Shown here piece after piece: positions 1,391-47,600 of a stretch of 64,000 nucleotides of DNA. The stretch is from Diplonema japonicum (Eukaryota > Protista > Euglenozoa: Diplonemea): contig OZ025709.1 in assembly GCA_964019335.1 (NCBI GenBank), positions 248,001-312,000 of the forward strand. Direction: 5' to 3'. A program made the translations under genes and the position numbers. The notes under the pieces were generated by a model. That model made no database searches. It was not told the origin of the DNA and was given only the letters and a program-made list of their open reading frames with translations. The stretch's first letter is position 1. Every line of letters starts with the position of its first letter.

Positions 1391-3045
1391 TCACCACACC
1401 CGTTGGGGCCCTGTAAACACCGGGGACCCAGCATCCACAAACATATCGGGACAAGATAAGGCAAGGCATCTCAGCAGGCTCTTTGTTGCTATCGTTGTAG
1501 CTTCCTGGGGCACGACACCTTGCTGCTGCCTTCTTGCAGGAGAAACATCGCTGGAACCACAGTTTGAGCCTGCAAGATGCTGAAACGCTTGGAGGCCCGC
1601 GTTAAAAAAAGCAAGCGAGGCAGCCCTGCGATGCGGAGCAGCAGTGTATTTATACAGCAAGGACAAGAGCGTCACAAAAGGAAAAGTAGGTTCAGACCAA
1701 GTCCCTGAAGGGAGCGATGCCACTGTGTGCTTAACGACATCATCAAGCAGCAGGTTGATGACAGAAGGAGGAAGGTGAAAAGAGTGCGAAAGCTGGGAGT
1801 GAACCGATACCGCGGTAAGGTAACCCGAGATGGCACCGAAACGTATTGTCCCAGGGTTTTGTATCTCCTCGTACTCTTCGAATATTCTTCTCAGCACCAC
1901 CAAGTCACCGTGGGTGAGCTTGAAACACCGCTCCGCCCTGGGGCGTTCCCTCCGTCTCCACTCTGCTTCTGCCCCGTACCAAACATCATGACCTCCACCA
2001 CCTACCATTTCTATGTAGCTTTCCTTCACAACCGTCCTGGCTGCCAGCGTTGCCGCCACTGCCGCAACTTTCTCCGTCCACTCCTTGTCACCCTTTTTTG
2101 TTTCCTCGACCCCTTTCACCCATAAACATATAAACTCGCCCATTCCCAAGAAACCGGTTCTGTTCGGGTCCAGCGTGGTGTTCACCCATGTCCGGACTTC
2201 ATTCAGCGTCTTGTACTCCTTGCTCAACCGTGTGCCAAGGGACACAAAATGGTCCGTTGGCTGCATGGTGTACGGTTTCCTGTTGTAATTGATTTTTTTT
2301 GAAGAAGAAAAAAGAAGGGGGGTGTGCTTTATTATTATTACAAAATCATGAAGCTTCCTCTCTTCACGGCCTTTCTGCTTTTCATAACAGGCTTCGGTGG
2401 TTCAGCAGGCGGCGGGGATGGAACCGATTCATCGAACGGTGGGGGAGCAGGGTGGGCTACTTCTACTTCTGTTTCCGTGCCTGCTGCAGTTCTCTCTTGG
2501 GTGTTTGTATATAGCTCCTCAACGGATTCAAGGTCGGCAACGGGAGGTTGTGCTGGGAAAAGATTCTCAGAAGTTGGAGTTGAAGGTGGCGGGGAGATTC
2601 CAAGGCACTCCGAAATCGGTGAGTTGAGTAGATACACCCCAGGGTGAGCAATCGATGGAGTGATAGGTGAGCTATCTCCGCTTCCTTGTGTTGTATTCTC
2701 GCTGTAGTCCAAGAGGTGTCCCTGTAATGGTGGTACACTTGGAGCCTGCGGTGTCTTCAGCCCTTCCCTGTGTATTCTCTCCTGTTTTTGTACAATGTGT
2801 TGGTTTGGTATTTCTGGTTGGTTTGCGGGTGTACCAGGGCTGGACTTTCCCACCCTCTTTCCTTTCGGCGGTGTCCTCTGAACATATCCACCGCCCCCCC
2901 TCACCGCCCTGTTCGCCCTCTCATCAGCCACCACTTTTTTCCAGTCTGTTGTTGGGTAAAAATCCGTTTCATACAACGGTGTCAATCCCTGTTCCGCCCA
3001 TCCTTGTGGTAATACATCAAGATGACATTTTAGTGTGTGTTGCAT
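1391..3045 (-). CDS. Hypothetical protein, probably two exons: join(2342..3045,1391..2279), predicted 62-nt intron 2280..2341
   Basis: ORFs 2338..3045 and 1391..2266 are joined in frame (..FMIL|KPYTMQPT..) by removing GTAATAAT...TACAACAG. The N-terminal half is Pro/Ser-rich. No recognisable domain. Confidence 0.55.
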
Positions 3046-3062
3046 CTTGGATTGTTAAAAAA

Positions 3063-3145
3063 TCCTCTCGGCCGGAATCGAACCAGCGGCCGCGCGATGG
3101 CTAACATTCTACAGTCGCGCGCTCTACCAATTGAGCTACGAGAGG
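3063..3145 (-). tRNA. tRNA-Tyr(GUA) with 10-nt canonical intron
   Basis: Minus strand reads CCTCTCGTAGCTCAATTGGTAGAGCGCGCGACTGTAG[AATGTTAGCC]ATCGCGCGGCCGCTGGTTCGATTCCGGCCGAGAGGA. Full cloverleaf with A/B boxes and intron at 37/38. Confidence 0.95.
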
Positions 3146-3151
3146 CTTCGA

Positions 3152-3430
3152 TTTTTTTTGCAATAATAACCACTGGGGGAAAACTGGGGGTGGGGGGAGG
3201 GGTGTGGGGTGTGTCCAGTCTTTTGTCTGGAGTAACCGAGAGGGCCACCACGTGGGCTGAACCTTCCCTTCGGTGCTCCGTTCCCCCCTTCCTGGGACAG
3301 CCGACCTGGCTGATTACATTCGGGGCGGTCCCCTCGAGGCTGAACGCAGGGGCGTTCTCTTGCTGCGCCCTGCGCCCTCCCGGCCTTCCCTGTGGCTGCC
3401 TCCCGGGAGGTTGTTTCTTGGCCCATTTGC

Positions 3431-3477
<47 letters not shown>

Positions 3478-6400
3478 GGGGACAAAGGGGTAGGGGGGGG
3501 GGTCTATAATGGGCTCACGATCACCCTTGTGCTGCGTCGGCCGGGGGGAAGATCCCACACTCAGACCATGATAAGAGCCCGGAGGCCTCGATGAAGGCGC
3601 AGACCTCGGCGGAGTGCTTGGAAAGCAGCGCGCGGAGCGGCAGCCCAGTGTCGTAGAAGGACTTAGCTGTGGGAGCCAGAGAATGACAGCCCCTCAGCAG
3701 GTGATCAGCGTCGAGCGGTGATTGAACGTTGCAGGCGGGGCAGGTGAGGTGATGACTCCCCTCAGCCCTCAGGGGTCCCTTGAGCTGGAGGTACCCCCTC
3801 ATCAAAGGCGTGTGTCCGGTCCGGAGCCGAATGATCAGGACCTCATCCCTCCTACTGAGTGGTGGGAGAGAGAGACATTCGCCACCGGTGACGAGGCGGT
3901 GGTGGCCGGGGGAGTCGCTGTTGTATCTCGCACGCGACCTTCCTCTCAGCCACGCTTTTATGGCCGCCTTGCTGGAGCGGTAGCTAACCCCGCAAGGCGA
4001 CTTCGACAGCCCGTCCCTGACCGCTCCGTCGGCGAGCTCGTTCCCCGTCACACCGCAGTGGGAGGGGATGTACCAGAAGTGCACATCACCAGAGCGTTTG
4101 GCCCTGAGCCAGGAAGCGGCATCCCAGATCCGTCTGTCCGTGGACTCCCTCTGCTGTCCGGGGCCTCCAGCGAGCCTCCGCAGCATCGTCTGTGAGTCGG
4201 TCAGCAGGTAGAGAGGGCGGCCCCTCAGGTTCACGACCGTTTTGTACACCTCCGCAGCCTCCTTCAACCCCATCAGGATAGCGGTGCCCTCGGCGCACAT
4301 GGGTGTGGAGACCATGCCGGCCCCGTGAGAGGTGGTAAGGGTGAGGTCCATGTCGGGGACTCTGAGGGCAACCCCAGCCCCCCCTCTCCCCCTTATCACC
4401 GAGCCGTCCGTGTACACTACCAGAGCGCCGCTTGGGATCTCGTCCAGCTTTTCCGCAGCCGCTGCCGCCCTCACATCGTCGGGGAGTGTCCTCCTGGTGT
4501 CGGTGGCGTAGGGATCGACGTGGATGCCTTCCGCCCAGGGGGGGGCTCTCGTATCAGGCCCTAGCGGTAGGGAAGCAACCGCACTCAGCCCAGAACTCCT
4601 CGTCGCCTTCAGCGCTCCCAAGGCCCATCCTGCGGTAGCTGCACCCCTGACCACCCTGTTCACCGGGGTTCCCACCCACCTCAGTGCCCTCTGCAGTAGA
4701 ATGGCAGAAGCAGGTACAAGGACCTGAGTGATGCTGCGGAACTGCCCCAGGACGAGCCGGAGAGGAGCCGCAGTATGCGAATTCGTTTGTCGTATCTCTC
4801 GATGATGTCGCGGGCATGGGCACCGAAAGACAAGTCAGCGTCAAGGATGACCCCTAGATACTTGGCCCTATCACGCCTCGCGACGGGGACGGCCGTGGAG
4901 AATTCATACACCAGCCCTTTGGAGACGAGTGCAGAGACGTCGCGTCGTGTCGTGGCCGTGCGGTTAACGGACAGGAGCCTCCTCCCGATCAGGTGAGTAG
5001 GTCCCCCGGCGATGAGTCGGCCCTTGAGCTCCAGCGGCTGGAATTCGAAGCCCGGATGCGTCGCCCCGGTCGAGGGGAAGTAGACGTGGAAGTCGTACGG
5101 TTCGCATTTGGGGGTGGGGACGTACAGCGTCTTCTCCCTGCTCAACTGCATCCCCCATCGTGTACACCAGTCTTCGACTGCACCCACTACCGCCGTGGCC
5201 CTGGCCTCGAGCTCAGTCCTTGTTGTGGCAGAGACTACTACCGCGACGTCGTCCGCGTAGATCGTGGAGAGCCCAGCCAGACCCTCAAGTTCCCTCGCTA
5301 GGTCGTCCACGAAGATGGTGAACAGCACTGGACCGAGTACAGAACCTTGAGGCACGCCACTCTTGATTTTGTAAGGGGTCCCCTTGACACCCTCCACGAC
5401 TACCCTCGCTGTTCTGGACGTTAGGAAGGAGGAAACCCACCTGGTGTAGGCCGTAGGGAAGCGCTTCTGAGACATCTTCTGAATGAGTGCCTCGTGGTTG
5501 ACCCTGTCGAACGCCTTTGAGAAGTCAAAGAGTATGGTGAGGCATGCCTCCTTAACTTCGGCGTTCCTTTTTATCGTCACATGCTGCACGATGGCGGCAA
5601 CCTGCTCCTCGGTGGACCTCCCTTTCCTGAAGCCAGCCTGGGCGGGGTGAAGTCCCTCTACCATCGTTGTCGGGGAGTCAAGTAGATACGTCACGCGGGC
5701 CTCGACCATCCTTTCCATGAGCTTGCCGAGGCAGCTCGTCAGGCTGATGGGGCGGTAGGACTCAATCTTCGTGGGGTCTTTGCCCGGCTTCGGGATCGGG
5801 ACGACTAGTGCCAGTTTCCACGTGTCCGGAACTTGCCCGCTCGCCCAGGAGAGATTGAACAGCTGTAGAACGATTCTCAGGGATTCCCTACCCAGACGCA
5901 TCAGCATCACGTTGAAGATTCCATCGTCGCCTGCAGCACTCTTCGTTCTCGTCCTGAGCAATTGTCTCAGCAGTTCGTCCATCGTGAAGTAGCCCGTTCC
6001 GCCCTCGTAGGGTTCCTGCGTCTGTCCTGTTGTGTCGAGACCAGGGACAGTGTCGTCTCCGCAGATCGTCTCGTAGTAGCGTCCGAGACGATCGGCCCTA
6101 GCCTTGTTGCCTGTGAGAAGAGCGTCGCCGTGTTGAAGGGGGGGGCATCGGTGGCCTCCATGACCTGCCGTCGAGCTCCTTGACTGCCTTGAATGCCGCA
6201 GGCAAGTTCTTGGAGGAGCTGAACTTGGAGCAGAGGCTCCTCCATGACTTCTCTTTGGATGCCTTCACCGTCTCGTTGACTGCATTGTTGAGCCCAGCGA
6301 GCCCTGCGTGATCTTCGGATTCCCCCCTGAGGATGGCGTCTCTGAGGGTGTCCCTTTCTTCAAAGGCCGTGTCCAGTTCGCTGTTCCACCATGGCTTCCT

Positions 6401-7400
6401 CTCGGTGAAACACCCGTGCCGAGGTATGTGCCTTGTTGCGGCTTCGCTCAGGGCTTCTTGGATCCTCTTGGCGAAGGTCGTGACCTGTTTGCATCCGTCC
6501 AGCCCTCGAAGCCTCCCGTCTACAAAGTTCTGGAACGCTTCCCAGTCTGCCTTCCGGTAGTTGTACAACTCAGGCGTGTATGCTCTCCTAGTCGGCCTCA
6601 GTAGGGGGACCTCGAATTGAAGGGGTGTGTGGTCAGAGCCCCAGGAACCCAAGTGGCAAGGCGTCCTGGGTTCCCATTTATCCTTGCTGAGGATCAGGTC
6701 AAGGACAGACCTGCTCCCTCCTCTCGTCCACGTGTGGCGGTCCGGTCTGTTCCATAGCACGAAGTTCTTGTTCTCCATCCATTCCCATACGGTCCAGCCC
6801 CTGTCGTTAGCTTTCGCAGCATGGTCCCAGCTTGAGTGGTGGGCGTTGAAGTCACCGCAGGCGATGTAGTCGTCTTCTTGGGGAAGGTCGGCCAGCTGGA
6901 GGGTCTGACCGCCTCTGGGCGGCAGGTAGAAGTTGCAGATGACCGCTTTGGAACTGTCACACCTGATTTCGACATCGAGCCTTTCCACGTCTTCGGAGAC
7001 AACACAAACCACCTCGCGAGCCTGAAGGTCCTTCTTGACCAGGGTGACAAGTCCACCTCCCCTCCCACTGCCAGCCTGGGCGGTTCGGTCCTTCCTGAAG
7101 ACTTGGTACCCCAGAGCCTGGAATTCGTCAGCTTGCACCAGCTTCGTTTCCTGAATGGCGATGACGTCCAGTTCCCTCTTTCTCGCTTGGTGAAGCAGCG
7201 TCGTCGTTTTGGCACCCCTTATCGAGTTACAGTTCCACGTGACAACTCGGAGGGGGCGAAGGAACCCCACAGGGCCCATGGCTAACACCTTTTGGGGACA
7301 GCGATCAGGCGCCGTTTCTTCTTCCCCGAGGGCGTCTTTGGTGAGCCTGGGGGCTTAGCGCTTGTCTGTTTGGACTCCGACGGGCCCCCCTTCTTTGAGG
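3152..7400 (-). mobile_element. Non-LTR retrotransposon LINE-A (APE-RT-RNase H-Zn finger; ingi/I-group-like), frameshifted, 5'-truncated
   Basis: APE (TWNCNS, IQET, GDFNAHH, SDH) at 6098..7288; RT (YRPISLTS, QAGFR, PQGSVL, YADD, YLG) at 4681..~6140; RNase H (YTDGS, TDSQ, HCGVTGNELAD) plus CPAC..H at 3521..4675. Two frame disruptions (~6140, ~4700). 3' UTR ends in TTATTATTGC-A8. Confidence 0.92.
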
Positions 7401-7977
7401 CTTCGAGAATAATTCCGAGGGTATTACTAGATTTGACCTAATAATAATTACCTTATTATTAACTGGAGAAACAGTAACCGGAAAAAGCGTGTTCATGAGA
7501 TATTCACAAGTGTGCTGCAAGGACAAGGACGGGAACATTTCGTAAGCCTTCTCAAAAAAAAAAAAAAAATACTGTAAAGCAAAAATCCACCGAAAGGAGG
7601 AATCTTTAGGGCACCTTGTGGAGATATCAGACGAGAGCCCGCATTTGGAGGGCCGCGAAAGGGACGCATTGGTCCATGCGGTATCCGAAGGCCACGTGGA
7701 AGCTGCTAGGGGCCGTCATGTGGGGCATGATGACCCAGCTGAAGGTACCTCATATGCGAAAGTGGATGTCGGAGAAGGCCAAGGCTCTGCAGGCGGGAAC
7801 AGCGACCTGGAGCTCGAAGGCTGAGATGCGTCCACGATGACGAGTCGTAGAAACTATCTCGTTGTTCCTTTGGAAGTCCCGCTTTTCGGAGCGGGTCCCG
7901 GGTGGATCTGTCTGGGTTTTGTTAGTTACGTTATTGAAAAGCATGTTATTTTTACGCATTCAACTCTTAAATTAAAA

Positions 7978-8125: not shown

Positions 8126-8235
8126 AAAGGTGCTAGACCTTTATAAAAATTACGTTATCACTTAGTGATCCATGTCCACGGTCATCTTTAGTAAAAGGCG
8201 AAAGATGAGTTCGTTATGAACAAGAATCGTGAGAT
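8126..8235 (-). ncRNA. U5: U5 spliceosomal snRNA
   Basis: Minus strand ATCTTTCGCCTTTTACTAAAGATGACCGTGGA carries the invariant loop I GCCUUUUAC and the CCG internal loop. Sm site AATTTTTA and 3' hairpin AAAGGT-CTAGC-ACCTTT follow. Confidence 0.92.
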
Positions 8236-8689: not shown

Positions 8690-11211
8690 CTGTAAAACGA
8701 AAAACTCCCGGACGGAAAAATGTCCGAGTTTTTTTGGTGTCCGGGAGTTTTTCCGTCCGGGAGTTTTTCCTGTAAGGTCGTCAGGGGGCCTGGTCCACTA
8801 CCACCTACATACTGGCCTGGGCTGCAAACGGCAACCGCGCGAAGAAACCGCCACCAAACCACTGGGTATCTGGGTCATGTGTTTCGTGTCCGTATTATCC
8901 CTGGAAGAAGATACCGTGTGGGCATAAAGCTCAAGATAAAACTGATTGATAAAAGGCAAAAAGAAAAGAAAAAAAAGGGGGGGTAGAGCTATCTACTGTG
9001 CTACCTTGCCTCCGGGTTTGGCCGCTGCCTTCTTGCCTGCGGGCTTAGCTGCTGCCTTCTTGCCTGTGGGCTTAGCTGCTGCCTTCTTTCTTGCAGGCTT
9101 AGCTGTTGCCTTCTTGGCGGCCCTCCTGGCGGCAGCGTCATCCAGCCGTTGCTGGGTGAGACTGGGGAGTATCTCCACTGACGAGTCTGAAGAAACGGAA
9201 AAGGTTTCTTCGGTTATCGTCGAGGCGGCGGACACGGTGGTCGTGTCGGAAGATGCATCTACGTCGATGACTTCCACACGTCCATGCTCCATGTCCTGGG
9301 CAAGCCTGGCATATAGGGAGTACTCGTCTTCCTCCTCTTCCCAGACCTCCTCCCAGCCCCAGTCCTCTTCCCACTCTTCCTCCCATGTTTTTCCAACAGC
9401 CAGCACACACGCAACACCGGCGTATGCAGCAAGTACCGAAAACTCCCAAATTGGGCTCCATCCGGGTTCCAGGTAGTGGCCAAAACAGGAAACCCAGCTG
9501 TTCCTGATCGACTGGCCGGAGACAGCATCCCAGGCTGTTTCGACCCACCTAGGAAAAAAACAGGAAAAGAAAAAGCCTCGTGGCATACCTCAAGTGAGGC
9601 CCTTTAATCGAGCTAGTAGAGGGCACCTCCCATGATTCAGCCGCCGCCCCTGAGGCAATCAGCTTGTCGAGCCTTCGTGTGGCCCACTTTTTATAACTGT
9701 TCTTAATAGATGCTTTTACAGCTGCGTTCAACCCAATATCCATCGGTTGAACCATGTAGGTGAGCCCAGGGGGGACAAAAGCAATGTGCACGTTTGTGCC
9801 TTCGAACAACTCCAAAAACTCATCGGTCGAATGACAGTTGTAGTCATCGACAAGCAGCAGAATCGACTCGTTCGGGGCAAAACCATGAGAATCGATGGTT
9901 TTACTGCAAAAAGGAAGAAACAGCTTTTTGACCCAGATACTGAGTGTATCATAATTAGCCCAATGACTGGGCGATGCCGTTAGGCTCCATTCGGCGGGCG
10001 GGTGCTTGACCCGGGGCACGGACCCTGGATAAACCCTGTCGGCTGCAGGTTCCGTTCTGCCTTTGTATATAAGTTGCGGATGCAACTTATCCCCAGCCAG
10101 GGAGACAGCCAGCTGTCCGGTTATGGCCCGTTTGTCCCCCAAGCCACGGACTTTTACGACCTTTGCACCCCTTTTCGTTTTGGTTTTTAACCCCAACGGC
10201 AACAGCTGCAGGGAGGTTTGGTCCATATTCCAGACCAATTCAGGCCTTACTTTATGGGTGTCGATTATTGACCTGAATTGCATGGCGAAACAGCGTGCCC
10301 TCTCTTTGTCCTTCTCGTTTCCAGGTTTTCCGGTGGTGGGCCTGCTGCTTTTGTAGCCTTTCCTGCTGCAAAGCTTGTCAGCCCAGCTGGTGGAAAAGGA
10401 CAGTGCCCCACCAAAGTCTACCAGCTCTGTCTTTCGGGCTGGATTAGCGCGCAGCAGCCCTTCTGCATAGGTGCATATTTGTTGCGCTGAGATAGGCTCG
10501 CCAAGTTCGTTTTGCCTATCGACCCAAGCAAAAACCTTGGCAGTCTCTGCCTCGGCCAGAAGAGGTTTGCGACCGACGGTAAAGGGGGCAGCAACAGGCC
10601 CAACAGAGCCTCCAAAGTTTTTTTTCCAGTCGGAAATACTGGACGTTGCTAGTTCCACCCCCTCTTTCGTGCGGTACCACGACCTGGCCGCCGCGACGCC
10701 GTGGGTAGCAGCGTATCGCCCAATAAGGGCTTTAGTATCCTTCGGGAGCTGGAGCTGCTTTCGGGGGTTTGTTCTGGCCTTCTTGGCCCGGTGTAAGGAG
10801 TTTATCTCCTCCACCTCTCGGGGGGTGAGCTGGTCGGAAGTGTCAGCAACCAAAGTTGGGTGCCTCACAAGCCAACAAGTTGCTCAACGTGCCTTGGGTA
10901 GTCGAACTGGTCATTTGACGAAAGAAGTACGGGTTTATGAGATTGAAGTTAAGATCCTGTGGGTGCTGTTTGTTGGTGCATTGAAAGGGAGGGAAAAAAA
11001 ATTCAAACTGCCACGCAGGGTAAACATTTTGGCTCTGCATACGAGTCTGCAAAGCCCTTCCAGGCAAACATGGTGGTATGGGAAAAAAAGCAGGAGGTGC
11101 TACCCCCCTTCCGTAAAAAAGACTTTTCCCCAGAAAAACTCCCGGACGGAAAAATGTCCGAGTTTTTTTGGTGTCCGGGAGTTTTTCCGTCCGACATTAT
11201 TCGTTTTACAG
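8690..11211 (-). mobile_element. pogo/Tigger-like DNA transposon (Tc1/mariner superfamily), apparently intact
   Basis: TIRs CTGTAAAACGAA / TTCGTTTTACAG, flanked by a TA duplication. Sub-terminal 'aaaaactcccggacgg' palindromic repeats occur at both ends. Confidence 0.92.
8993..10868 (-). CDS. DDE_1 (pogo-type) transposase, join(9589..~10868,8993..9548), 40-nt intron 9549..9588
   Basis: HTH/CENP-B-like N-terminus; NMDQT, LLVDDYNCH and VQPMDIGLN catalytic motifs. Splicing restores HLR|WVETAW..IRNSW. Acidic then KKAAAK-rich tail. Start codon uncertain (the ORF-track start is non-ATG). Confidence 0.85.
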
Positions 11212-36237: not shown

Positions 36238-36558
36238 TCAAAGTCCACCTCTCAGTGCCAACACCAAGTGAAGTACGGATCCTGCGGCGATATTGTATTC
36301 GACTGCAGTCTGTTATAGTGTTCCTCTTTTTCTTTTCATCCATTTCCACAAACCTTCTCATCGGCCATCTGTCTACCACCGAAAATCAGTCTCTGCTGTG
36401 CAGGCGGGATCCCTTCCTGCTCCTCAACTCTTTCCTGCAGAAGACGGGGTAAAATGCATAAAAAGATGTACACACACCTTAATCCTCTCAATCTTGCTGT
36501 CCGCCTCGATGTCAAACTCAATCTCCTTCCCAGTCAGCGTTTTCACTTTGATCATCAT
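36238..36558 (-). CDS. NEDD8: Ubiquitin-like protein NEDD8/Rub1, join(36478..36558,36354..36434,36238..36309)
   Basis: Spliced product [27 protein letters not shown]|[27 protein letters not shown]|[23 protein letters not shown]. Introns are 43 and 44 nt. Missed as a single ORF by the track. Confidence 0.95.
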
Positions 36559-36625: not shown

Positions 36626-36699
36626 TATTCCCATCCGGGTTCGAACCGGAGACCTTCGCCGTGTTAAGGCGACGTCATAACCAACTAGACCATGGGAAC
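36626..36699 (-). tRNA. tRNA-Val(AAC)
   Basis: GTTCCCATGGTCTAGTTGGTTATGACGTCGCCTTAACACGGCGAAGGTCTCCGGTTCGAACCCGGATGGGAATA; full cloverleaf. Confidence 0.95.
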
Positions 36700-36704
36700 T
36701 CACG

Positions 36705-37620
36705 TTTTTTTTTTAATAATAATAATAATTATTCCACTACCAGGCGGGGGGGATGGGGGGCGGAGAAAGTTGAAACCATAAAAATTGGGAAGGGAAGGTT
36801 AAAAACAGTCTCTCTTACTGAGCCATATCGGGGGGGACCTCTTGCTCGTTTGCTCGACCTCTTGTATATTTTCCTGGGGCCCCCGACATCCACCTTTCTT
36901 ATTTTTTCCCCATTCCCCCGCCACGCAGCTCTTGGGCCTCGAAGGCTTCGGCTGTCACCAAATAAAGACAACCCCAAATATTAAAGGACGGCGATGAGAT
37001 CCCTAATTTTGATTTATCCAGCCACAGGGACCCCACCATCTGCTGGTTTTGTTGGGCTGTGGGAGCCTAAAATATAAATTTGAAAAGGAAATGTAAAAGG
37101 AAAAGTCAAGTTCAGAACTCAACTTCCACAAAGAAGGGAGGAATGCATAACTAGAAAAGGAGCCTGGTAGGGAAAATAAAAAGAAAGGGAAACCAATGGG
37201 GGAGGGGGAAAAAGAATTACTGGTTACTATTTCTAAAAAAAAAAAACCCCCTTCTCAGCTGCGAAAGATGTTTTTCCAACGAGACTCCCTATCGCGTAAT
37301 GACGCGGGCGCACCAGGTAGGCCGGCGAGTGCTGTGGAGTCAATCGTCAGCGGGGAGGAAGAGGTTGTGAGAGGCGAAGTAGAGGAGGGGGGCACGTTGG
37401 CAGATAACCCACCGGCCTTGGGTTTTTTTTTTTTTTTTTTTTTTTTTTTTCAAAATACCAATGCAGGGCCGCCATGGAGAGCAACACCTGAGAAAAGGGG
37501 AAAAAAAGGTGAAGGGAAACCATGGGGAAATAGGGAGGGCAATGGACCAGGCTTCTGCAAGCAGGAGGAGCCCTGGTCCCCCACCAACCCGTGCTCTGCT
37601 TTGGGACAGCCGAAGAAAAT
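36705..37620 (-). mobile_element. Non-autonomous retroposon (internal-deletion derivative, RIME/NARTc-like) related to LINE-C
   Basis: Its 5' ~170 bp (37445-37615) is homologous to 50590-50755, and its 3' ~370 bp (36715-37075) to 43810-44225. It has a (TTA)n-poly(A) tail and is flanked by ACG. Confidence 0.82.
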
Positions 37621-38160
37621 ACGTTTTTTTTAATAATAATAATAAATGAACCACTGACGTGCGAAGCAAAGGCTGGGGGGGGGGGGACAGAACAGGTGGA
37701 CCAAGGGTCTCCCTGTATCTAACGAAAGGGGGAAAGGAAAGGAATGTGATAACCTTGAAACTTCCGCTAAACTATCCATACGTACCGAGGACGGAGGTGG
37801 GGCCGGTTCGTGGGCTCCAGTGTTCGCGACTTCGCCCACCTCCGTGACCCCGGCAGCTCTCCAGCCCGCTTCCCAAGCCAGCACCCTTCGGGCGAACCTC
37901 CGGGTTTTTGAGGAGTGGGGTACCTCGTCCGTGCTCGCCCTCACGAGCGGCACACTGGCACGGAGGCATCCCCTTCAGCCAGCTTTGTTGGGCGGCGGAG
38001 CCTTAGAAAATTCAAAACAAAGGGAAATGATACGGGGGGATGTGTGAAGGGGCGGGGAAAGGTGAAGACAGAAGTTGGGGTGCACGACAGGGTAATAATG
38101 GGAAACACAGGGGGAGGGGGAGAGGGTTCACTAGTACTTTTTGGTTCACTTTTTTCTGTT

Positions 38161-38196
<36 letters not shown>

Positions 38197-38241
38197 CTAC
38201 GTCCTGCGATTGCGGTCAGCGGCTCGGCGGTCGTGAGAGTC

Positions 38242-41200
38242 TCAGATGAGGTCCATCCTCTTCAGGTAGGAGGCGGTTTCACTCACCCTCATTGTGAGCA
38301 TCTCCTTCGTGGTCGTGGGGATGTCATCCCCGAAGATCTCTTCGCGGACCTTGTCTCCAGCTGGGCACCCGATCAGCAGATGGTGTCTGTCCTGGATCGA
38401 ATGGCACGAGAGGCAACGTATGTCATTCTGGACGGGTTTCGACAGGAAACCGCAAGTCAGGTGGCTCCTGCCCGTTCGCAGTCTCGTTATCTGTACCTCA
38501 TCGTGTCTGCAGGACAGTTCCTTCAAGGGGAGGTACCTCGCGCCGATCTCCTCTCGGTACTTCTTGTCCCGACCCGTCTTCTCCCACGAGGCTGCCCAGT
38601 CGCGGTTCACCGACCTCTTGATGAGGCTCTTTGTGGTCATCAGGTCCGTCGGTCCGTCCGGTGTCGACTCCTTTGCGGCGCGTTTGGCGTGTCGGTCGGC
38701 TTGCTCGTTACCTGGTAGGCCGCAGTGTCCGGGAACGTACTGGATGATGGTGGAGAGGCCTTGGCGGTCAAGCGCGTCCAGCCATTTCCAAGCCAGCAGT
38801 TCCTCCTTCTGCCTCATCTCTCTGTGGCCCTGCATCAGTCTTCTGATCACCGACTGGGAGTCCGAGCACAGCAGCACTACTCCGGTCGTCACACCTTGTC
38901 TCCGGGTATGGTACAGTGTCAATTGCAGCCCCAGGTTCAGCGCTTTCAGTTCGCATCGGTAGGCCGAAGTCACTGCTCCTCCGCTCTTGCGAGCCTGCTT
39001 CGGTGTGTCAGACCCGATCCTTATCACAGCTGCCGAACCGCCGTTCCTGTGTCCGGTGACTGACCCGTCGGTGTAGACGATCACATCTGGGATGCCGTGC
39101 CTCCTGATCGATTCGAAGGCCGCTCGGAGTTTGAGACTTTTTTCGTCCTTCTTGTGTACCTTGCGGACTAGGTCGGGGTGGAACAGGACTTTGGGTTGGA
39201 CCCATGGAGGGAGCTGCAGGTCTGCGCTCTGAGTGACTGAGTGGTGTGGTAGGTCTTCGCGTTCCGGCATCCCGTGACTCTTCGCCAAGTCGAGCGCGGT
39301 GTTTCGCCAGCTTTTCCCGTACCACATCTGACCCCCGGATATCTTTGTTGCCTTCTCCGCTGTCGTCCCCGGTTGACGCTGTGCCTTCTCGTAGAGCACC
39401 AGGGTGTCGTGTTCCAGCAAGGATTCAATCTCCCAGATGCCCGCCTCTGACCTGGTCACCGTCGCGGAAGTCTTGTCGAAGCATCCCGTTATCAACCTCG
39501 CTGCTGTGTATTGTAGCGAGTCGAACTCGGCCAGAGCAGCATGTCCCACGAAGTTGCCGTAAGCACCGAGACAGTAGCGCAGAACCGGTTGGACGTACGT
39601 CAGGTACAGCGTCCTTAGGGTGTGCTTGCGGCAGCCCCACCTTGTTCCGGCGAGTTTGCGCAGCAGGCGAAGACGGCTGTTGATCTTTCCCTTCACCTTC
39701 TGCACATGCTCGTGGAAGTTCATGCTTTCGTCGAAGGTGACGCCAAGATATTTAGCCTCGCGTACCACCTTGACTTTCGCCCCACTCGAGGGGAAGCGGG
39801 CGTTGATGAGGTTTGCGAGACTGTCGTGCGAGTTCCAGAACTGTCCCTCTACCGGCATGAACTCTGTCTTTTCCTGGGACAGTTTCATCGAGAACGTCTC
39901 GCACCATCGCTCCGTGAGGCTCACCGCGCGTTGCACCTTCTTGTTCAGCTCGGCAGGACTCCCCGCCTCCAGCACTATCGCTATGTCGTCTGCGTACACT
40001 ACCGCGTCGATTCCAGCCTTCCTGTACAACCTGGCCAGGTCGTTGACGTAGATGGAAAAGAGCTGCGGGGCCAGGATGGTGCCTTGGGGTACGCCCCCTG
40101 TCATTGTCTTCACGCAGCCGTGTTCCCCGTTCACACAGACGGAGGCTTTACGTTGGTCGAGGAAAGAGGTGATCCATTTCACGAGCTTGGGAGGGTATCC
40201 GTCGCCTATCAGCTTTGCGATCACTCCCTTGTGCCAGACTGTGTCGAAGGCTCCTTTGAAGTCGAACAGCAGGAGACCCCCCAGACCTTGGCTCAGTCTG
40301 ACACTTTTGAGCTTTGAGGCGGCGTACAGCACGTTTTCCTCCGTGGACCTCCCTTTCCGGAAACCCGCCTGCGATGTGTGCAATTGCCTTACCCGTCCTG
40401 TGTCCTGCAGGAAGCACATCCTGTCCTTGACTATTCGCTCCAACGTCTTCACGATGTTTGACGTCAGCGCGATCGGCCTGTACGAGGCGGGTTCGGATTG
40501 GTCTTTGCCCTTTTTCATGAGGGGGATGATGGAAGACCGCCTCCATTCGGCAGGGACGACACCGGTCTGGAGGGATGAGTTGTAGAGGAGGAGTTGAACT
40601 TCCCTGGCCACCGGTCCCAGGTACTTCAGCATTTCGTTGTAGATGCCGTCTGGGCCCGGAGCCTTGCCCTTCTTCAGCCTTCGCAGCACCGAGTCCAGCT
40701 CGTCCTTCGTTACCAGGGGGAAGTCGTTGTCTGTCCCGGGCTTCGCGTCCTTCTTGATGGTGGTGATCACTTCCTCCGACTTGGCAGTCGTCCTTGGGGA
40801 GCAGGCCCTCGCGTAGTGTTCGACGAGTACACTGGCCTTCTCCCTGTCGGTGGTGGCGATACCGTTTCCTCGTCGGAGCGGGGCTATTGGTGGCTTCTCG
40901 CTGCGACCGTCGAATCTGCGGATGACCGAGAAGGCTTGCGTCAGGTTTCCGTCCTTGGACAACTTCTTGGTGTAGTCGCCCCAGGCAGCCTGCTTCCCGC
41001 TCGTTATCGCCCTGTCCAGCTCAGCCTCCATCGCCGCTAGACGTGCCAGGTCTTCGTCGTTCCCGTCGTGATCCTCGGACAACAGCTTCGCCTTCAGTGT
41101 GCTTCGTCGCCTTGCGAGTGCGTCAATCTCGTCGTTCCACCAAACCTTCCCTTTCTTCTGTCCTTTCCTGGGGACGCACGATTCGGTTGCCGATAGAAGA

Positions 41201-42570
41201 AGAAGTGTGCGAAACTCAGCGTTTAGCCTTATCGGGTCTCTGGCCCTGAGCAGCCTGCTGCACTTTTCTTCCATCGTCTCCCTGTACGCGCTCCTTGCCT
41301 CCTTCCCCCAAGAGTAGAGTACTCTTCTGGTCGGTTGGCTGACTCCCCCTCTCAGACTGAAGAACATCGGAACGTGGTCTGAGCCCATTGCTGGCAACGT
41401 CCTCCAAGAAGATTTGTCGAACTCTGCGCCGCTCATTACCATGTCCGGAGAGGTTGGGTTTCCTGACGGGTTCAGGATCGTGGCTTCGCTGCTCTTGTTC
41501 CATGTGCTGTAGCCCCATCGCAGCATCCAGCTGTGCAGTATTTCTCCCAGCTTATTCGGAGTGCCCCTTTTGTCCCACATCGTGTGGTGGGCGTTCATGT
41601 CACCGGCGATGATGGTGTAACTGTCATGAGGCAGCTCTGCCGGGCGGAAATATTTCTCGGGGGGTGGTCTGTCGTCGCCGTCTCTACCCGTTGTCGGAGG
41701 CAGGTACAGGTTGACGAGTCTGTACGGCTTCCGGTTGGGCAGCGAGATCTCTACGTCGAGTCTTTCCGTCACGTCGCTGGGTTTCTGAAGAACTTCGATC
41801 TGTTTCGACGGTATCGATTCTCTGACCAGTGTGACGAGACCCCCTCCGCTGATTTGCTTTCCTCTTTTCACCGGTCGTGTTCGGTCTCGGCGGTATGCCT
41901 TGAACCCAGTGAAGACTCCGGTTATATCTTTCGACGGCCTCAGGAAAGTCTCTTGGAGTAGGAGCACGTCGATGTTGTGTGTCTCAATGCCCTTCAGCAG
42001 CTGCGCTGTGGTGCTCACCGTTAGGGATCTGACATTGAGAGACAGTACGTTGATGTTGTTGGGTGGTGGTGTTGTGTTGGAGTGTGCCTGTGAGAGAGAG
42101 GAAGTAGAGGGGACGGGAGGGAGAGAGTGTTCAACTCTTGTTGTCTTTTCGGTGGTTGGACCGGGGTTCGCTTCTATGTCCCCGCAGCTCAGTAAGTGTT
42201 TTCCGTGCGGACCTCTGGCTGCGGGATTTCTGCGAATGTGAAGATTGCCTGTGTGGTCACCCCTAGGTCCAGGCCTTTGGATACTGGGTAATACTTCGTC
42301 ACCGGTGACGGGAGTTTGTGAGTGCTTGTTTGGGGAGGAATTGTGCGTGGAGAGAGGGAAAGATGAGGGATGGTGATGTGGTGATGATGTGCTGCCTTTG
42401 CGGTCACCCCAGCTTCCAGGGCTTGAGAGGCTGGGTAGTACTTCATCTTCGTTTAGATGGGGTGTAGTGTTGGGGGTTTGGGAGTAGGGACAGGGAGTGA
42501 GAGACGGTGTGGGAAAGGGGGTGAAAGGGGTGTTGAATGAGATTGCACGGCCCTTAGTACTGGCCTTCAA
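38242..42570 (-). CDS. LINE-B ORF2: 2A peptide, AP endonuclease, reverse transcriptase, RNase H, Zn finger
   Basis: LLSCGDIEANPGP; SLNVRS, LQET, GDMNAHH, SDH; YRPIALTS, PQGTIL, YADD; YTDGS, CSDSQS, HCGLPGNEQAD; CLSC..H...C. Confidence 0.93.
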   Translation of the reverse strand: MKASTKGRAISFNTPFTPFPTPSLTPCPYSQTPNTTPHLNEDEVLPSLSSPGSWGDRKGSTSSPHHHPSSFPLSTHNSSPNKHSQTPVTGDEVLPSIQRPGPRGDHTGNLHIRRNPAARGPHGKHLLSCGDIEANPGPTTEKTTRVEHSLPPVPSTSSLSQAHSNTTPPPNNINVLSLNVRSLTVSTTAQLLKGIETHNIDVLLLQETFLRPSKDITGVFTGFKAYRRDRTRPVKRGKQISGGGLVTLVRESIPSKQIEVLQKPSDVTERLDVEISLPNRKPYRLVNLYLPPTTGRDGDDRPPPEKYFRPAELPHDSYTIIAGDMNAHHTMWDKRGTPNKLGEILHSWMLRWGYSTWNKSSEATILNPSGNPTSPDMVMSGAEFDKSSWRTLPAMGSDHVPMFFSLRGGVSQPTRRVLYSWGKEARSAYRETMEEKCSRLLRARDPIRLNAEFRTLLLLSATESCVPRKGQKKGKVWWNDEIDALARRRSTLKAKLLSEDHDGNDEDLARLAAMEAELDRAITSGKQAAWGDYTKKLSKDGNLTQAFSVIRRFDGRSEKPPIAPLRRGNGIATTDREKASVLVEHYARACSPRTTAKSEEVITTIKKDAKPGTDNDFPLVTKDELDSVLRRLKKGKAPGPDGIYNEMLKYLGPVAREVQLLLYNSSLQTGVVPAEWRRSSIIPLMKKGKDQSEPASYRPIALTSNIVKTLERIVKDRMCFLQDTGRVRQLHTSQAGFRKGRSTEENVLYAASKLKSVRLSQGLGGLLLFDFKGAFDTVWHKGVIAKLIGDGYPPKLVKWITSFLDQRKASVCVNGEHGCVKTMTGGVPQGTILAPQLFSIYVNDLARLYRKAGIDAVVYADDIAIVLEAGSPAELNKKVQRAVSLTERWCETFSMKLSQEKTEFMPVEGQFWNSHDSLANLINARFPSSGAKVKVVREAKYLGVTFDESMNFHEHVQKVKGKINSRLRLLRKLAGTRWGCRKHTLRTLYLTYVQPVLRYCLGAYGNFVGHAALAEFDSLQYTAARLITGCFDKTSATVTRSEAGIWEIESLLEHDTLVLYEKAQRQPGTTAEKATKISGGQMWYGKSWRNTALDLAKSHGMPEREDLPHHSVTQSADLQLPPWVQPKVLFHPDLVRKVHKKDEKSLKLRAAFESIRRHGIPDVIVYTDGSVTGHRNGGSAAVIRIGSDTPKQARKSGGAVTSAYRCELKALNLGLQLTLYHTRRQGVTTGVVLLCSDSQSVIRRLMQGHREMRQKEELLAWKWLDALDRQGLSTIIQYVPGHCGLPGNEQADRHAKRAAKESTPDGPTDLMTTKSLIKRSVNRDWAASWEKTGRDKKYREEIGARYLPLKELSCRHDEVQITRLRTGRSHLTCGFLSKPVQNDIRCLSCHSIQDRHHLLIGCPAGDKVREEIFGDDIPTTTKEMLTMRVSETASYLKRMDLI

Positions 42571-43774
42571 CCTTCCTTTTTACGGGAGGGTTCACCTTGT
42601 GCAGGGGCGTTGTCTGCGAGGGGGTGGTGTGTAGGGTTGTCTGCCTTGTTGTGGCAACTCCTACGAGCCTTTCGGCTGGTGGGGGGGTGTCGTAGCATAA
42701 AGGTGCTACGGTACCCTTTCTCTCCGGTGTCGCAGCGTGCCTGGGGCAGTCTGGGGTGTCAGTCCCCTCGTCAGCGCCATCGGTGGACGGCACGTGTCCC
42801 CTCTGTTCTGGGGACCCGTCTGCCTCCTCGGAGGTTCCTGGTGGGGGGGCTCCTGTAGTCAAGTGGATGAGTAATCTGTTCATCCCTTGCTTCAGCTCCT
42901 CCACCGACCGCTCCGTCCTCTCCGATGACGCCTTCAAGGAAGAAATCTCCCCCCTCAGGCCACCAAGCTCGCCCTCCACCAGGCCCACCCTCCTGTTCAG
43001 CTCCTCAGTCCTCTCGTCCGTACGCACCCCTCTCATCTCCACCTCTTCCACCTTCCTCTCGCACGCCTTCTCCCACAGCCCGGCCTGTTCCCTCGCCTGC
43101 TCCAACTCGGCAATCCGCCTGTCCATGGCTTCCCTCCAGCCCCAGTCGTCCTCCATCCCGCCTCCCTCTTCCTTCTCGGCGCTCTCCAGCGCCTGGATCC
43201 TCGCCTCCAGCTTCTCCTCTCTTTCCCTGGCCTCGGCCTTCCTTTTTGCGGCTTTGGCCCCCTTCTCCTCTCTCGCCTTCTTCTTCCTCCCCTCCTTCTC
43301 GTCGGCCAGCTCCCACACCTGCGACCAGCTCGCCCCCCCGAACTCCCTGCGGAAGTCTATTTTGGTCCCTCTACGAGACCCACCCGGTAGTTTCCTTTTA
43401 AAGGATCCCTTCTGCTCCTCGAACACCACCTTATGGGTAGTGTCTCCGTCCCTCACTGAGTAGGACTGAAGAGGGGGAGTCCCTGTGGTTACGATGGTGC
43501 CTAGGACACCGTCGAACCTCATCGACTTCCCCAGTCCAGCCTGCGCAATGAAGGCCGCCCACGTGGGCTTGGGGGCAAGCGGGGCTACGACTGCGTCGTA
43601 GTGCTTCCGGGTGGGCTTCGTCTTGGGGGTCGTCTCGGGGGGGGTCTTTCTGATCACCACCTCGGTGGTTTGCAGCACTAGCTGCGGCGGGTCTTGGTCG
43701 GGCTCGCTCCCGTCCGGTAGGGGCCCCTTGGAGGCGCCCGCCTTGCTCGGCTTCGTCATTTTGTCACTTGACAT
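42554..43774 (-). CDS. LINE-B ORF1 (coiled-coil)
   Basis: 406-aa ATG-initiated ORF with a central heptad coiled coil, directly upstream of and overlapping ORF2. Confidence 0.75.
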   Translation of the reverse strand: MSSDKMTKPSKAGASKGPLPDGSEPDQDPPQLVLQTTEVVIRKTPPETTPKTKPTRKHYDAVVAPLAPKPTWAAFIAQAGLGKSMRFDGVLGTIVTTGTPPLQSYSVRDGDTTHKVVFEEQKGSFKRKLPGGSRRGTKIDFRREFGGASWSQVWELADEKEGRKKKAREEKGAKAAKRKAEAREREEKLEARIQALESAEKEEGGGMEDDWGWREAMDRRIAELEQAREQAGLWEKACERKVEEVEMRGVRTDERTEELNRRVGLVEGELGGLRGEISSLKASSERTERSVEELKQGMNRLLIHLTTGAPPPGTSEEADGSPEQRGHVPSTDGADEGTDTPDCPRHAATPERKGTVAPLCYDTPPPAERLVGVATTRQTTLHTTPSQTTPLHKVNPPVKRKVEGQY

Positions 43775-44273
43775 TTTTTTTTTTTTTTTTTTTTTTTTTT
43801 ATTTGTTTTTTTTTAATAATAATAAAAATAAATATTCCACTACCAGGCGGGAGGATCGAAGGGGAGTAGAGAAAACCATTCAAGGGAAAGGGAAAGGGAC
43901 ATCACTTCAAACCAAGAGAGGTGTTTGAAAGTGATTCGTGAAAAGCAGTCTCTGTTACTGAGCCATTGGTCGAGGGGTCCTGGTCCGCTGCTCCCTGTAG
44001 TAAATTACTTGGACCCCCTCACCACGCTCTTTTCATAATAAAATAAAACCGATCCCACCCACCAGGCAGCACCTGGGTCTCGAGGCATTAGCCGCCTCTA
44101 GTAACAAGAGACGACCTCCCAGATTTTAAGAACTTTGGAGGAGTTTCAATTGTGAAAAATTAACCAGCTGACTGTGAAACTCCACCGTCTGCTGGACTTG
44201 TTGGGCTTTCGGGAGCCAATAAATTCAATTCAATTAAGTTTCGTTCTTCAGTTTTTTTTTTTTTTTTTTTTTT

Positions 44274-44306
<33 letters not shown>

Positions 44307-44635
44307 TTTTTCTCAAAATAAAGGAATTCAAATCAAGCTCGATTGTGTACACCGAAGCTTGAATCATCTGTCCTTCTTTTTTTTCTTTTTTTTTTTTTTT
44401 TCTTTTTTCTTTCTATATGAAAGGTGAGTGAAAAATTTGAATAACACTGGGGGCGGGGGACAGGGGCCTGGTAATGGAAAATAAGGGAAGACACTGGGGA
44501 GGGAGGTGAAAAGAAAGGATAGGAGTGAAGCCAGAGTCGAGAGATTGAGTTAGAAACAATTGCTGTCTGAAGTCGTTTAACAACTTCAGACCTCAATGTT
44601 TGGAGAGTATAACATATTATAATTTATAAGTTTTT

Positions 44636-47600
44636 TCACAATGTTCCCTGCCGCTCCAAGAGCTGGGCGGTCTTACAGGCGTCGGTGGACAGGAGGACTT
44701 TGAGGGAAGGAAGGGAGCTACCGAAGATCTGACTCCTTTGGTCGGTCCTCTTTCCGTCTTGGCATTCCCGTAGGAGGTGGCTTAGAGTCTGGGGTTGCGA
44801 ACATAGATGGCACGGGACCTCCTCGACTGGGGGTATGAGTAGGTATCCGCAAGTGAGTGGGCTCTTCCCCACCCTCAGCCTCATGATCGCCACTTCTTTC
44901 TTTCTGTCCAGCTCCTCGAACTTCTCGTAACTTCCGGCAAACTGCTCCCTGTACGTCTTTGTGACGCCAGTATCCTTCCATAGGCGGAGGTGGCTTCTGA
45001 TGACATGCTTCCTCACCAGAGTTTTAACCACCTCAATGTCTGTCTCACGGGTGTGGGCCAGTCTTTCGCTCGCCTCTTTTGCCTTCTGGTCCGCCTTCTC
45101 GTTCCACTTGTACCCGCAGTGACTCGGGACGTATTGAACGATTAGCTTGTGGCCTCTGCCTGTCAAGCTCGCGACCTCCTGCCAGAGTTCGAAGTCATCT
45201 TTGGAGGCTGCCGACATGTGTCCCTGGCACATCTTCCGTATCACCGACTGCGAATCTGTGCATATCAGAACCATCCCTTGGCTTGCAAGCTTCCTCTCTG
45301 AGAGTCTTGTCGCCAGTCGGATCCCTAGCCTCAGGGCCCTGAGTTCGCATTTGTAGGATGTCGAATACAGTCCACCGCTGATCCCGTAGGCAGCATCGGA
45401 CCCGTTGTGCAGCAGGATGGCGGCCGAGCCTCCGTTTTTCCCATCCTTTACGGACCCGTCTGTGAACACCATGCAGAATGCCCGGCCGTGTTTCTCGCAT
45501 AACCTGTTCAGGGTGTTCGTTGTTGCCTCTTTCCTGACCTCTTTTGGGTCCGTCCTTTTCACCTGCGTGTCTAGGAAGGGGGAGAGCACGAGTTGCCCCT
45601 CGAATCTTTGCCAGGGTGCAACCGCGAGTCTCCTCATGAAGACGGCGCCCGAGTGAGGTGTGCCCGTCCTCTCTGGGAGTTTGTAGGCTTTCGATGCCTC
45701 TCTCTGTTTGTCAGACCAAGTCCTCCTTGGTAGGAGCTTCTCGTACCTGGTCAGATCCTCCAGAGGCTGAGTCGCCTGGTATGCGGCGGTGTCCACTTTT
45801 CTCATCAGTGACTCGTAGAGCAACAGGCTGTCGTGTTCGATCAGCGCATCCAGGGTCCACAGCCCCGCTTCGTTCAGTGTCGCGAATGTCTCTGATGACG
45901 CGATGCAGCCTGTGATCTTCACCGCTGCCCTGTATTGAAGCTTCTTGATGCCTTCGTGGGGCGTGTTCCTCCCGCTCGGGAGAAATGACCCGTACACGCC
46001 CAAGCAGTATCTGAAGACTGGTTGCACATATGTGAGGTATAGAGCCCTCAACACCACCTTCTTGCAACCCCATCTCGTTCCCGCAAGGCAGCTCAGCAGC
46101 CTGACCCTGCTTTCACCTCTTTCCAAGACGTCTCTGGAGTGTTCGGAGAAAAGCATGTCCTCCTCGAAGGTGACTCCGAGCAGCTTTGTTTTTTCGACCA
46201 CCTCGAGTTCTTCGCCGGTCTTGAAAGTTGCTCTGATCTTCCCCTTCAGTGTTCTCTGCGGATAGGAGATGCCAGCAACGGGAAGGAACTCTGTCTTTCC
46301 CTTGGAGATCACCATCGAGTTTCTCGAGCACCAGCTCTCCACAACCCTCAGGATCTTCATCAGTTTTCCATTCAAGCTGTCCAGGTCTTTTTCGTGCAGC
46401 ACCACCGCAATGTCGTCTGCGTACATCACGGCATCAATGCCCTCCTTTTCGAACGTCTCTGAGAGGTCGTCCATGTAGATCGAGAAGAGGGTTGGGGCAA
46501 GGATGGTTCCCTGTGGAACCCCACCCGTTATGTGTTCGTGCTTCCCTGTTTCGCCACTCACCTTGACGGCAGCGATCCTCTGGTCTAGGAAAGCGGCCAC
46601 CCAGTCCGTAATTCTTTGCGGGTAGCCATTACTCCTCATTTTCGCATTTAGACCCTTGTGCCACACTGTGTCGAAGGCTCCTTTCAGGTCGAAGAGCAAA
46701 AGTCCGCCGCAGAACTCATCGTCTCTGATGCGGTTCAGTTTCGTGGTCACTTGCAGGACGTTCTCTTCTGTGGAGCGCCCTTTCCTGAAACCTGACTGCA
46801 TTTTGTGCACCCTCTTCACATCTCCCACGTCTTGGTGGTAGTCGACCCTTATCTTTACTATCCTCTCCATTGTCTTTGAAATGTTGGAGGTTAGCGATAT
46901 CGGTCTGTACGATGCCGGATCACTTCTTGACTTGCCCTTTCCTTTGTAAAGTGGGATTATGTGCGTGAACCTCCAGTCTGATGGTACCACTCCCTTCTCC
47001 CATGACATATTGAACAGATGGAGTAATGTGTCCATGGCCGTCCCCCCCAGGTGTTTCAGCATCTCGTTGTAGACACCGTCTGGGCCCGGGGATTTCCCCT
47101 TCTTCAACTGCCTCAGCGCGTGCTTCAGTTCCTCCATGCTTATCCCTGGGCAAGTGACCCTGTCCCTCAAGTCCTTGATCACTTTGGACTTCCTGTTTTC
47201 ACCGTCCAGCATCTTCTTTGTGTCCTTGTTAAGGTGGGGTGCAAAAGCCTTTGCGTAGTGCTCCACAAGGACGTCTGCTTTTTGCTTCGCCGATGTGTGT
47301 AGCTTGCCGCCTGCCATTAGTGGTGCTACTGGATCTTTGTCCTTCCTGCCATCGAGCGTTTTTATCGTCCTGAAAGCGTGTCCCAAGTCCTTTTTCTGAG
47401 ACAGCTCCTTCATGTAGTCGGCCCACGCTCTTTTCTTCCCTTCATCGATCTGTTTCTGCACTTGCCTGCTGATTTCACCAAGCCTCTCGCATTGTTCTAT
47501 CGATGGGATGCCGATGTCCGACATAATCTCCTTCTTCAGAGCGTTTCTTCTTCCAACCAGTTGCGTCAGCTCTTCAGTCCACCACGCTTTCCCGCCTCTC

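Follow-up and report, generated by a model that had tools for sequence, protein, structure and literature searches.

A 64,000-nt stretch of Diplonema japonicum DNA (contig OZ025709.1, positions 248,001 to 312,000 of the forward strand; hereafter the window) carries a LINE, LINE-A, whose 3' tail stops a few bases before a tRNA-Tyr gene. Does this placement reflect targeting of tRNA genes by LINEs, and if so, what sets the position? The features at the junction were as follows.

3057-3062, minus strand: T6 run directly 3' of tRNA-Tyr, likely a Pol III terminator (putative function)
3063-3145, minus strand: tRNA-Tyr(GTA) gene, the intact target gene (Rfam, 58.1 bits; ARAGORN with introns)
3142-3151, minus strand: 3' copy of the TSD, TCGAAGCCTC, equal to -6 to +4 of tRNA-Tyr
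3152-3175, minus strand: LINE-A 3' terminus with CAGTGG motif, (TTA)2-TTGC and A8 tail
3152-7393, minus strand: LINE-A, a 5'-truncated LINE (Pfam; public-run contigs)
7394-7396, minus strand: three extra A between the truncated 5' end of LINE-A and the TSD
7397-7406, minus strand: 5' copy of the TSD, TCGAAGCCTC, at the repeat edge of LINE-A
7407-7440, minus strand: original upstream flank of tRNA-Tyr, displaced by LINE-A

The minus-strand order given in the preliminary description (terminal motif, A8, TCGAAG, tRNA-Tyr) was exact in the sequence, with the terminal motif at 3175-3160, A8 at 3159-3152 and the spacer TCGAAG at 3151-3146. The tail was likewise found 6 bp before the gene, as had been described (A8 ends at 3152 and the tRNA starts at 3145). 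The tRNA-Tyr(GTA) gene contained a 10-nt intron (about 3108-3099; ARAGORN with introns) and was followed directly by the T6 run, which fits a native gene rather than a retrocopy.

Our analysis added a 10-bp TSD to this observation. About 2e-4 copies of the 10-mer TCGAAGCCTC were expected per 200 bp and 0.12 per window, and the 11-mer was unique; a third copy of the 10-mer on the opposite strand (+6506) was taken as chance. The TSD spans -6 to +4 and shows that LINE-A entered the leader of a pre-existing tRNA-Tyr gene. The insertion leaves both gene and short leader uninterrupted, with just four tRNA bases copied to the far side. The empty site had no A-run and the TSD was 60% GC; since this target is not A/T-rich, a plain L1-like preference for T-tracts offers no explanation for the insertion. 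By eye, the first 14 nt or so of the displaced flank (7407-7440) resembled the tail-less flank of another tRNA-Tyr copy, and that tail-less flank (loose end at 3150) was present in all four public runs described below.

Two further observations were made at this locus. The tail-less flank of one tRNA-Tyr copy contains an 18-bp palindrome that ends two bases before +1, and an imperfect version of it is present in the displaced flank of the window. Before the LINE-A insertion, a U5 snRNA gene on the same strand (complement 8127-8234) ended 721 bp upstream of the tRNA-Tyr leader; LINE-A pushed the two 4.2 kb apart. No LINE tail was found upstream of this U5 gene (n = 1; Pol III transcription of U5 is assumed here).

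LINE-A carries the features of an APE-type LINE, including APE and RT coding, a 3' A tail, 5' truncation and a flanking TSD. Pfam placed the endonuclease in the ORF piece 6098-7354, RT in 4681-6264 and RNase H in 3521-4834. Compared with other copies, it is one base longer near 6138 and lacks a stretch near 4712, seen in the public-run contigs as a 1-nt gap at 6138 and loose ends at 4711/4713; judged from its sequence, the window copy is defective. Its repeat edge lies at about 7393-7400, and other copies continue past 7393 in the public-run contigs. Between neighboring bins at this edge, summed depth, which is not to be read as copy number, fell from 98,180 to 708 in run X5 and from 2,715 to 126 in run X1. 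This depth step, together with the copies running beyond 7393, indicates that the window copy is 5'-truncated, and with its 5' part lost it has no ORF1. Compared with the PDB by sequence, the endonuclease gave four generic exonuclease III-type matches, which have no bearing on DNA specificity. Two runs from other organisms (X11 and X12) covered LINE-A in pieces, and no empty-site joint was found in them.

The second tRNA gene lies beside an array of elements.

36626-36699, minus strand: tRNA-Val(AAC) gene, the second target (ARAGORN)
36705-37616, minus strand: element S, a short non-coding relative of LINE-C, 0.9 kb (shared blocks)
37624-43805, minus strand: LINE-B, with ORF1 and an intact ORF2 with a 2A-like motif
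43806-50755, minus strand: LINE-C, with an intact ORF2 (Pfam)
51307-58000, minus strand: LINE-D, without a recognizable tail, the closest relative of LINE-A in the window

The near match in orientation and spacing that had been described between the two tRNA genes was borne out, with a same-strand tail at 5 nt from tRNA-Val versus 6 nt from tRNA-Tyr and the spacers CGTGA versus TCGAAG. At tRNA-Val, the A10 tail ends 5 nt before the gene (CGTGA), or 6 nt if its last A belongs to the target. Both tRNA genes of the window had been called occupied, and ARAGORN at its default threshold found two tRNA genes, each with a tail (2/2). The terminal motif is indeed common to the end of LINE-B (CAGTGGTT at complement 37656-37649, one of five occurrences in the window). 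The tail beside tRNA-Val belongs not to LINE-B but to element S, which shares blocks with LINE-C and not with LINE-B, namely the 5' 190 nt (80%) and three 3' blocks.

The minus strand of the window carries four LINEs with endonuclease, RT and RNase H (LINE-A to LINE-D; Pfam). It also holds all four occurrences of the tail pattern AGTGG-(TTA)n-An, at tRNA-Tyr, at tRNA-Val and at the ends of LINE-B and LINE-C; the last two (2/4) have no tRNA after them. The LINE-C tail abuts an A-run before the start codon of LINE-B ORF1 rather than a tRNA. After the LINE-B tail comes a 7/10 match to the -6 to +4 site of tRNA-Val (P about 0.01) and then S, an order that fits a landing of S between LINE-B and the tRNA-Val gene. 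By eye, the C/B junction agreed with the expected TSD at 2/10 positions; near the D/C junction (6/10) and at the 5' end of LINE-D (7/10), the best matches were at chance level. We rejected the reading of the whole D-C-B-S array as a tRNA-Val stack, because TSD matching holds at most for the B/S junction. With no TSD match at C/B and D/C and the LINE-C tail in an A-run, the evidence does not anchor the rest of this 21-kb array, beyond B/S, on a tRNA.

Other features of these elements were recorded. The conserved end motif AGTGG(TTA) (complement 3174-3167, 37655-37649 and 36738-36734) also resembles the D-loop sequence of the third tRNA target described below. A long hairpin of similar form is present in the shared 5' blocks of S (complement 37617-37520) and LINE-C (complement 50756-50655), at -32.8 and -31.7 kcal/mol (calculated without a shuffle control); by eye, one pair appears to be exchanged between the two (T-A to C-G). 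After the hairpin come a pyrimidine tract and AG, resembling a trans-splice acceptor. In LINE-D, the 5' end (complement 57817-57974) contains about six tandem 23-bp units, recalling the modular 5' repeats of other LINEs. The idea that the elements target each other's internal Pol III promoter was dropped, since the 5' block showed neither an A box nor a B box in S or in LINE-C.

The window also encodes RPB1 (complement 22580-28405) without heptad repeats, which gave eight matches at 71–100% identity followed by Euglena at 50%; the clusters of the 82% matches include Rhynchopus humris and Flectonema neradi. Further genes are a 2OG-Fe(II) oxygenase (complement 32570-33660), a NEDD8-like gene (complement 36240-36557) in which two introns of about 43 nt were recognized by eye, an aldehyde dehydrogenase family gene (complement 61209-62490) and a radial spoke head-like gene (complement 62718-63470). 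In a long ORF without a Pfam match (complement 14197-18066), a hydrophobic N-terminal stretch precedes a charged tandem repeat that makes up most of the length. Two isolated large-subunit rRNA fragments were found (complement 12888-13108 and 31670-31817); about 3600 scattered rRNA pieces are reported for D. papillatum (PMC10161547). Two pogo/Tc5-type DDE transposons (complement 9549-10883 and 19293-20475) are 65% alike and have repeated ends, and a 61-bp exact direct repeat is located at 8699-8759 and 11133-11193. A MITE-like non-coding repeat of 560–630 bp, about 90% identical among copies and with internal inverted repeats, occurs at 33704-34268, 59213-59839 and 60170-60758, and in part at 31054-31242.

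The stretch 3040-3183 was compared with contigs of four public runs (one organism, two studies). The junctions were read from short contigs among the displayed rows, with about 31 matching LINE-side letters, at the edge of the bridging rule. At least five different types of downstream flank of tRNA-Tyr were found, and upstream flanks were of four types among those displayed. The first is the LINE-A tail, unchanged from the window form in X5 and with an A7 variant (two differences) in X1 and X5. The second is a TAT-A9 tail (TTA-type) followed by CATCAG, 6 nt before tRNA-Tyr, in two contigs of X5. The third and fourth are tail-less and retain CGAAG or TCGAAG. A 63-nt contig of X4 joined an S-type tail to tRNA-Tyr in register, with 0 gaps and five other letters; it may or may not represent the same locus as the X5 CATCAG junction.

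A 202-nt contig of X2 showed a LINE-A-type end, A8, GTAAGA and then the 5' half of a tRNA, again a distance of 6 nt. Run X4, which belongs to the other study, gave a LINE-A-type/tRNA junction of the same geometry. The 24 displayed bases of this tRNA contain T8, G10, A14 and G18-G19, with 3/3 visible D-stem pairs. They end before the anticodon, and the acceptor strand matched tRNA-Val at 3/7 and tRNA-Tyr at 4/7 positions. Because both acceptor strand and D arm are unlike those of Tyr and Val, the target is a third tRNA gene type. The LINE side of the contig departs from the window LINE-A after about 40 nt and so represents a sister family or a short derivative.

Both LINE-A-type ends with displayed, readable downstream sequence (2/2) led to a tRNA at 6 nt. 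Most LINE-A ends stopped inside a long A-run (six contigs in X1, one of two in X2 and many of the 13 in X5). One X5 consensus that extended past the A-run resembled a tRNA only in part, with A at position 8, and was left out of the counts. Another X5 contig held a LINE-A tail, 7 nt ending in AAG like the Tyr leaders, and LINE-A cut at 3718, as expected of a head-to-tail stack formed by repeated insertion at one tRNA leader. By depth arithmetic, no X2 contig crossed 3151/3152; this may reflect a polymorphic insertion or a filtered record, and we made no evidential use of it. Across four junctions, two in the window (TCGAAG and CGTGA) and two in public contigs (GTAAGA and CATCAG), the tail-to-tRNA distances were 6, 5, 6 and 6 nt.

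These junctions make it very probable that the LINEs target tRNA genes as such. For a given tRNA, the chance of a tail in a 3-nt interval was about 1e-4 with the four tail motifs in 128,000 strand positions, and about 3e-3 when any run of A8 or longer (144 in the window) was counted, both values being post hoc for the two window cases. An improbable alternative is a weak preference for open chromatin or A-rich leaders, with tRNA starts as one favored class and the fixed distance a product of the small sample. It would account for the LINE-C tail in the A-run before the LINE-B start codon, the LINE-B tail before S, and the many LINE-A ends in contigs that stop inside A-runs. The window is also dense in mobile elements, and tRNA loci of T. 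cruzi are often near retroelements in a report that claims no targeting in its available text (bioRxiv 10.1101/2023.12.15.571829). It fits poorly with four junctions at three tRNA types that are all at 5–6 nt and on the same strand, two of which were found after the prediction was made, and with a tRNA-Tyr target that has no A-run.

An artefact or shared history (mis-assembly, a tRNA carried by the LINE, or one junction duplicated) is highly improbable. The assembly does have long homopolymer runs, and at some sites the run contigs disagree with the LINE-A of the window. Nevertheless, both window junctions were recovered in contigs, the 3' junction unchanged in a 57-nt contig of X5 (0 differences) and the 5' one, with 23 letters on the LINE side, in a contig of 264 nt. 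The TSD overlaps tRNA-Tyr, whose end is a T6 run without poly(A), and the junctions involve more than one tRNA type and more than one element family.

How far apart the participating elements are bears on what sets the position. LINE-A and LINE-D were 47% identical over the RT piece and LINE-B and LINE-C 42% over ORF2, and LINE-A was about 33% identical to LINE-B and LINE-C. A quick RT tree was built from 55 hand-picked rows, comprising the four window LINEs and 51 of the matches listed, with no named ingi, L1Tc, TRE or NLTR sequence among them. In this tree, LINE-A and LINE-D grouped with D. ambulator and D. japonicum proteins (support 99) and LINE-B and LINE-C with D. ambulator proteins (97); the two groups joined at 90, apart from animal elements. 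The AGTGG-(TTA)n-An end is common to both RT lineages.

APE, RT and RNase H are encoded in one long ORF in LINE-B and LINE-C and in pieces in LINE-A and LINE-D (Pfam). A 2A-like DxExNPGP motif precedes the endonuclease in full in LINE-B and LINE-C and as ExNPGP only in LINE-D. It is absent from the window copy of LINE-A, which is cut there; the nearest relative of LINE-A (P0242) starts with similar motifs. LINE-B, LINE-C and LINE-D each have a separate upstream ORF of 414–807 codons with no Pfam match. An atlas search with residues 230-530 of LINE-D ORF1 gave a best score of 0.82 and RRM-like matches at 0.76–0.79, a lead only. LINE-C ORF2 was 99.6% identical to a transcriptome-derived protein (P0122), so the LINE-C family is likely expressed. 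We regard the window LINEs as ingi-like; since LINE-B, LINE-C and LINE-D have an ORF1, we would not file them in the Ingi clade. In weak tests, no HDV family was found among 11 Rfam matches over S, and a crude descriptor of our own for HDV-like ribozymes gave no hit in 3/3 5' regions (the 5' end of LINE-A is missing).

The best 80 of 387 metagenome loci found with the LINE-A alignment were distant LINEs (≤41% identity), and 0/80 had a tRNA gene, a count that is uninformative because these are other clades on short contigs. Viral contigs contained no LINE-A relatives and no exact matches to two tail motifs.

Target-primed reverse transcription is the standard mechanism of LINE insertion, and the junctions can be read on it. 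The LINEs and their short non-coding partner sit at a fixed position 5–7 bases before various tRNA gene types with the tail towards the gene, probably because the RNA polymerase III start complex on the tRNA gene brings the LINE protein to the site. The first nick would fall on the template strand between -7 and -6, priming would proceed without a T-tract, and the second nick would cut the other strand after +4. Independence from a T-tract is suggested by the empty tRNA-Tyr site, which has no A-run; the first primer base also varies between sites, and only 1/4 could pair with the A tail. The site would be rebuilt after each event, so that each later copy would enter on the gene side of the older one and head-to-tail stacks would form. 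By analogy with TRE5-A and Ty3, TFIIIB, TFIIIC or Pol III may set the position. Such a host landmark fits the spacers, which have no common motif, and the presence of two distant RT lineages at the same offset, and we lean towards a LINE protein tethered by the Pol III start complex.

The preliminary description had ascribed targeting to position-specific protein tethering and not to a DNA sequence motif. The fixed position and the differing spacers uphold the first part; the dismissal of a motif goes too far given an A box shared at fixed distance, and the tether remains an argument by analogy. In every target, the tRNA A box and D arm lie 13–25 bp from the nick. Positions +1 to +4 of the targets read CCTC, GTTC and GCTC, with TC at +3/+4 in all three types. 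Given these two regularities, direct DNA recognition predicts the same data: the LINE protein itself would read A box/D-arm DNA and cut at a fixed distance, with a TC preference before the second nick and no host factor. We consider this unlikely, though less so than a weak preference. Besides the A box distance and the +1 to +4 bases, it is favored by two purines at -2/-1 in 4/4 spacers, the tight spacing of 5–7 nt, and a D arm that is mostly common to the third target and tRNA-Val. It also has precedents in L1Tc insertions, which are reported to follow a degenerate upstream pattern (PMC5814959), and in tRNA-specific LINEs reported among RLE-type elements (NeSL-1_TV and LIN15/25; PMC4640811). 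On the other hand, the sequence around the first nick is not conserved, the D arms of Tyr and Val are substantially different, and the same DNA specificity would be needed in two RT lineages about 33% identical.

Published systems are compared here as described in the available parts of the cited papers. The closest known system is NLTR-A of Dictyostelium purpureum, which has RNase H and is located 2–6 bp upstream of tRNA genes (PMC5911963, PMC5006619), compared with 6, 5, 6 and 6 nt here. RNase H after RT and two ORFs are found here too. The likeness covers distance, RNase H and ORFs as described for NLTR-A. NLTR-A comes from another eukaryotic supergroup, and the elements in the window have a 2A-like motif and fall among Diplonema LINEs. 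TRE5-A/B/C of Dictyostelium discoideum and NLTR-B are likewise LINEs upstream of many tRNA types and serve as the model of TFIIIB tethering: for TRE5-A, an intact B box is required and ORF1 binds TFIIIB (PMC5911963, PMC5006619). However, TRE5 elements insert about 40–54 bp upstream in the opposite orientation (PMC5911963), in contrast to 5–7 bp in the same orientation here, belong to the L1 group with a zinc finger in place of RNase H, and differ from the window elements, whose TSD reaches into the tRNA.

L1Tc/ingi elements are euglenozoan APE-RT-RNase H LINEs with a DxExNPGP 2A-like motif before the endonuclease (PMC5814959, PMC3708506). Together with NARTc, RIME and SIDER, they share poly(A) tails, TSDs of 7–11 nt and tandem clusters (PMC12278014, PMC4035085, PMC5814959, PMC3708506), and in its construction element S resembles the internally deleted partners that accompany trypanosome LINEs (PMC4035085). 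The Ingi clade differs in having no ORF1, which is present in LINE-B, LINE-C and LINE-D. Its 5' Pr77 signature comes with an HDV-like ribozyme, for which our weak tests gave no match here. The available trypanosomatid literature describes no tRNA targeting by the L1Tc/ingi group. Ty3 inserts 1–4 bp from the Pol III start via TFIIIB (PMC5911963). Ty3 and Ty3-like LTR elements (Ty3p, Tj1 and Tyl3) resemble the present case in inserting within a few bases of the Pol III start, but they are integrase-based and do not use target-primed reverse transcription. Brf1 and TFIIIC subunits are reported to be present in trypanosomatids.

In the literature searched, LINEs at tRNA starts were described for social amoebae only. 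A search for literature on diplonemid (2022 on) or euglenozoan retrotransposons upstream of tRNA genes found nothing, and the available text of a trypanosomatid mobilome paper makes no mention of tRNA-targeted LINEs. The one published diplonemid genome, that of D. papillatum, is about 280 Mb and repeat-rich, with LINE, SLACS, R2 and jockey-like ORFs and 211 tRNA genes; the available text of its paper makes no mention of tRNA targeting (PMC10161547). In the available accounts, tRNA-gene targeting by LINEs is explained as a safe-harbor adaptation of compact amoebal and yeast genomes.

That these LINEs target tRNA starts, across tRNA types and across element families, has good support, though from a small sample. 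Tentatively, as a picture that may well prove incomplete or wrong, a diplonemid-wide old clade of 2A-bearing LINEs, with two lineages about 33% identical and short partners, would cut any tRNA gene within its Pol III start region, at -6 on one strand and at +4 on the opposite one, prime without a T-tract, rebuild its target and pile up multi-kilobase stacks. If true, this would be the first tRNA-start-targeted LINE system in Euglenozoa, with a sense-oriented geometry in which the A/T-rich tail of the element replaces the TFIIIB-binding flank of the gene. A diplonemid case would represent an independent origin in another supergroup. From the TSD, the two cuts can be placed to the base within the start region of the tRNA gene, and intact, likely expressed members such as LINE-C make it testable whether Pol III factors position an APE-type LINE at the start site. 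For site-directed insertion tools, too, a LINE able to insert at any tRNA gene and leave it unbroken would be of interest.
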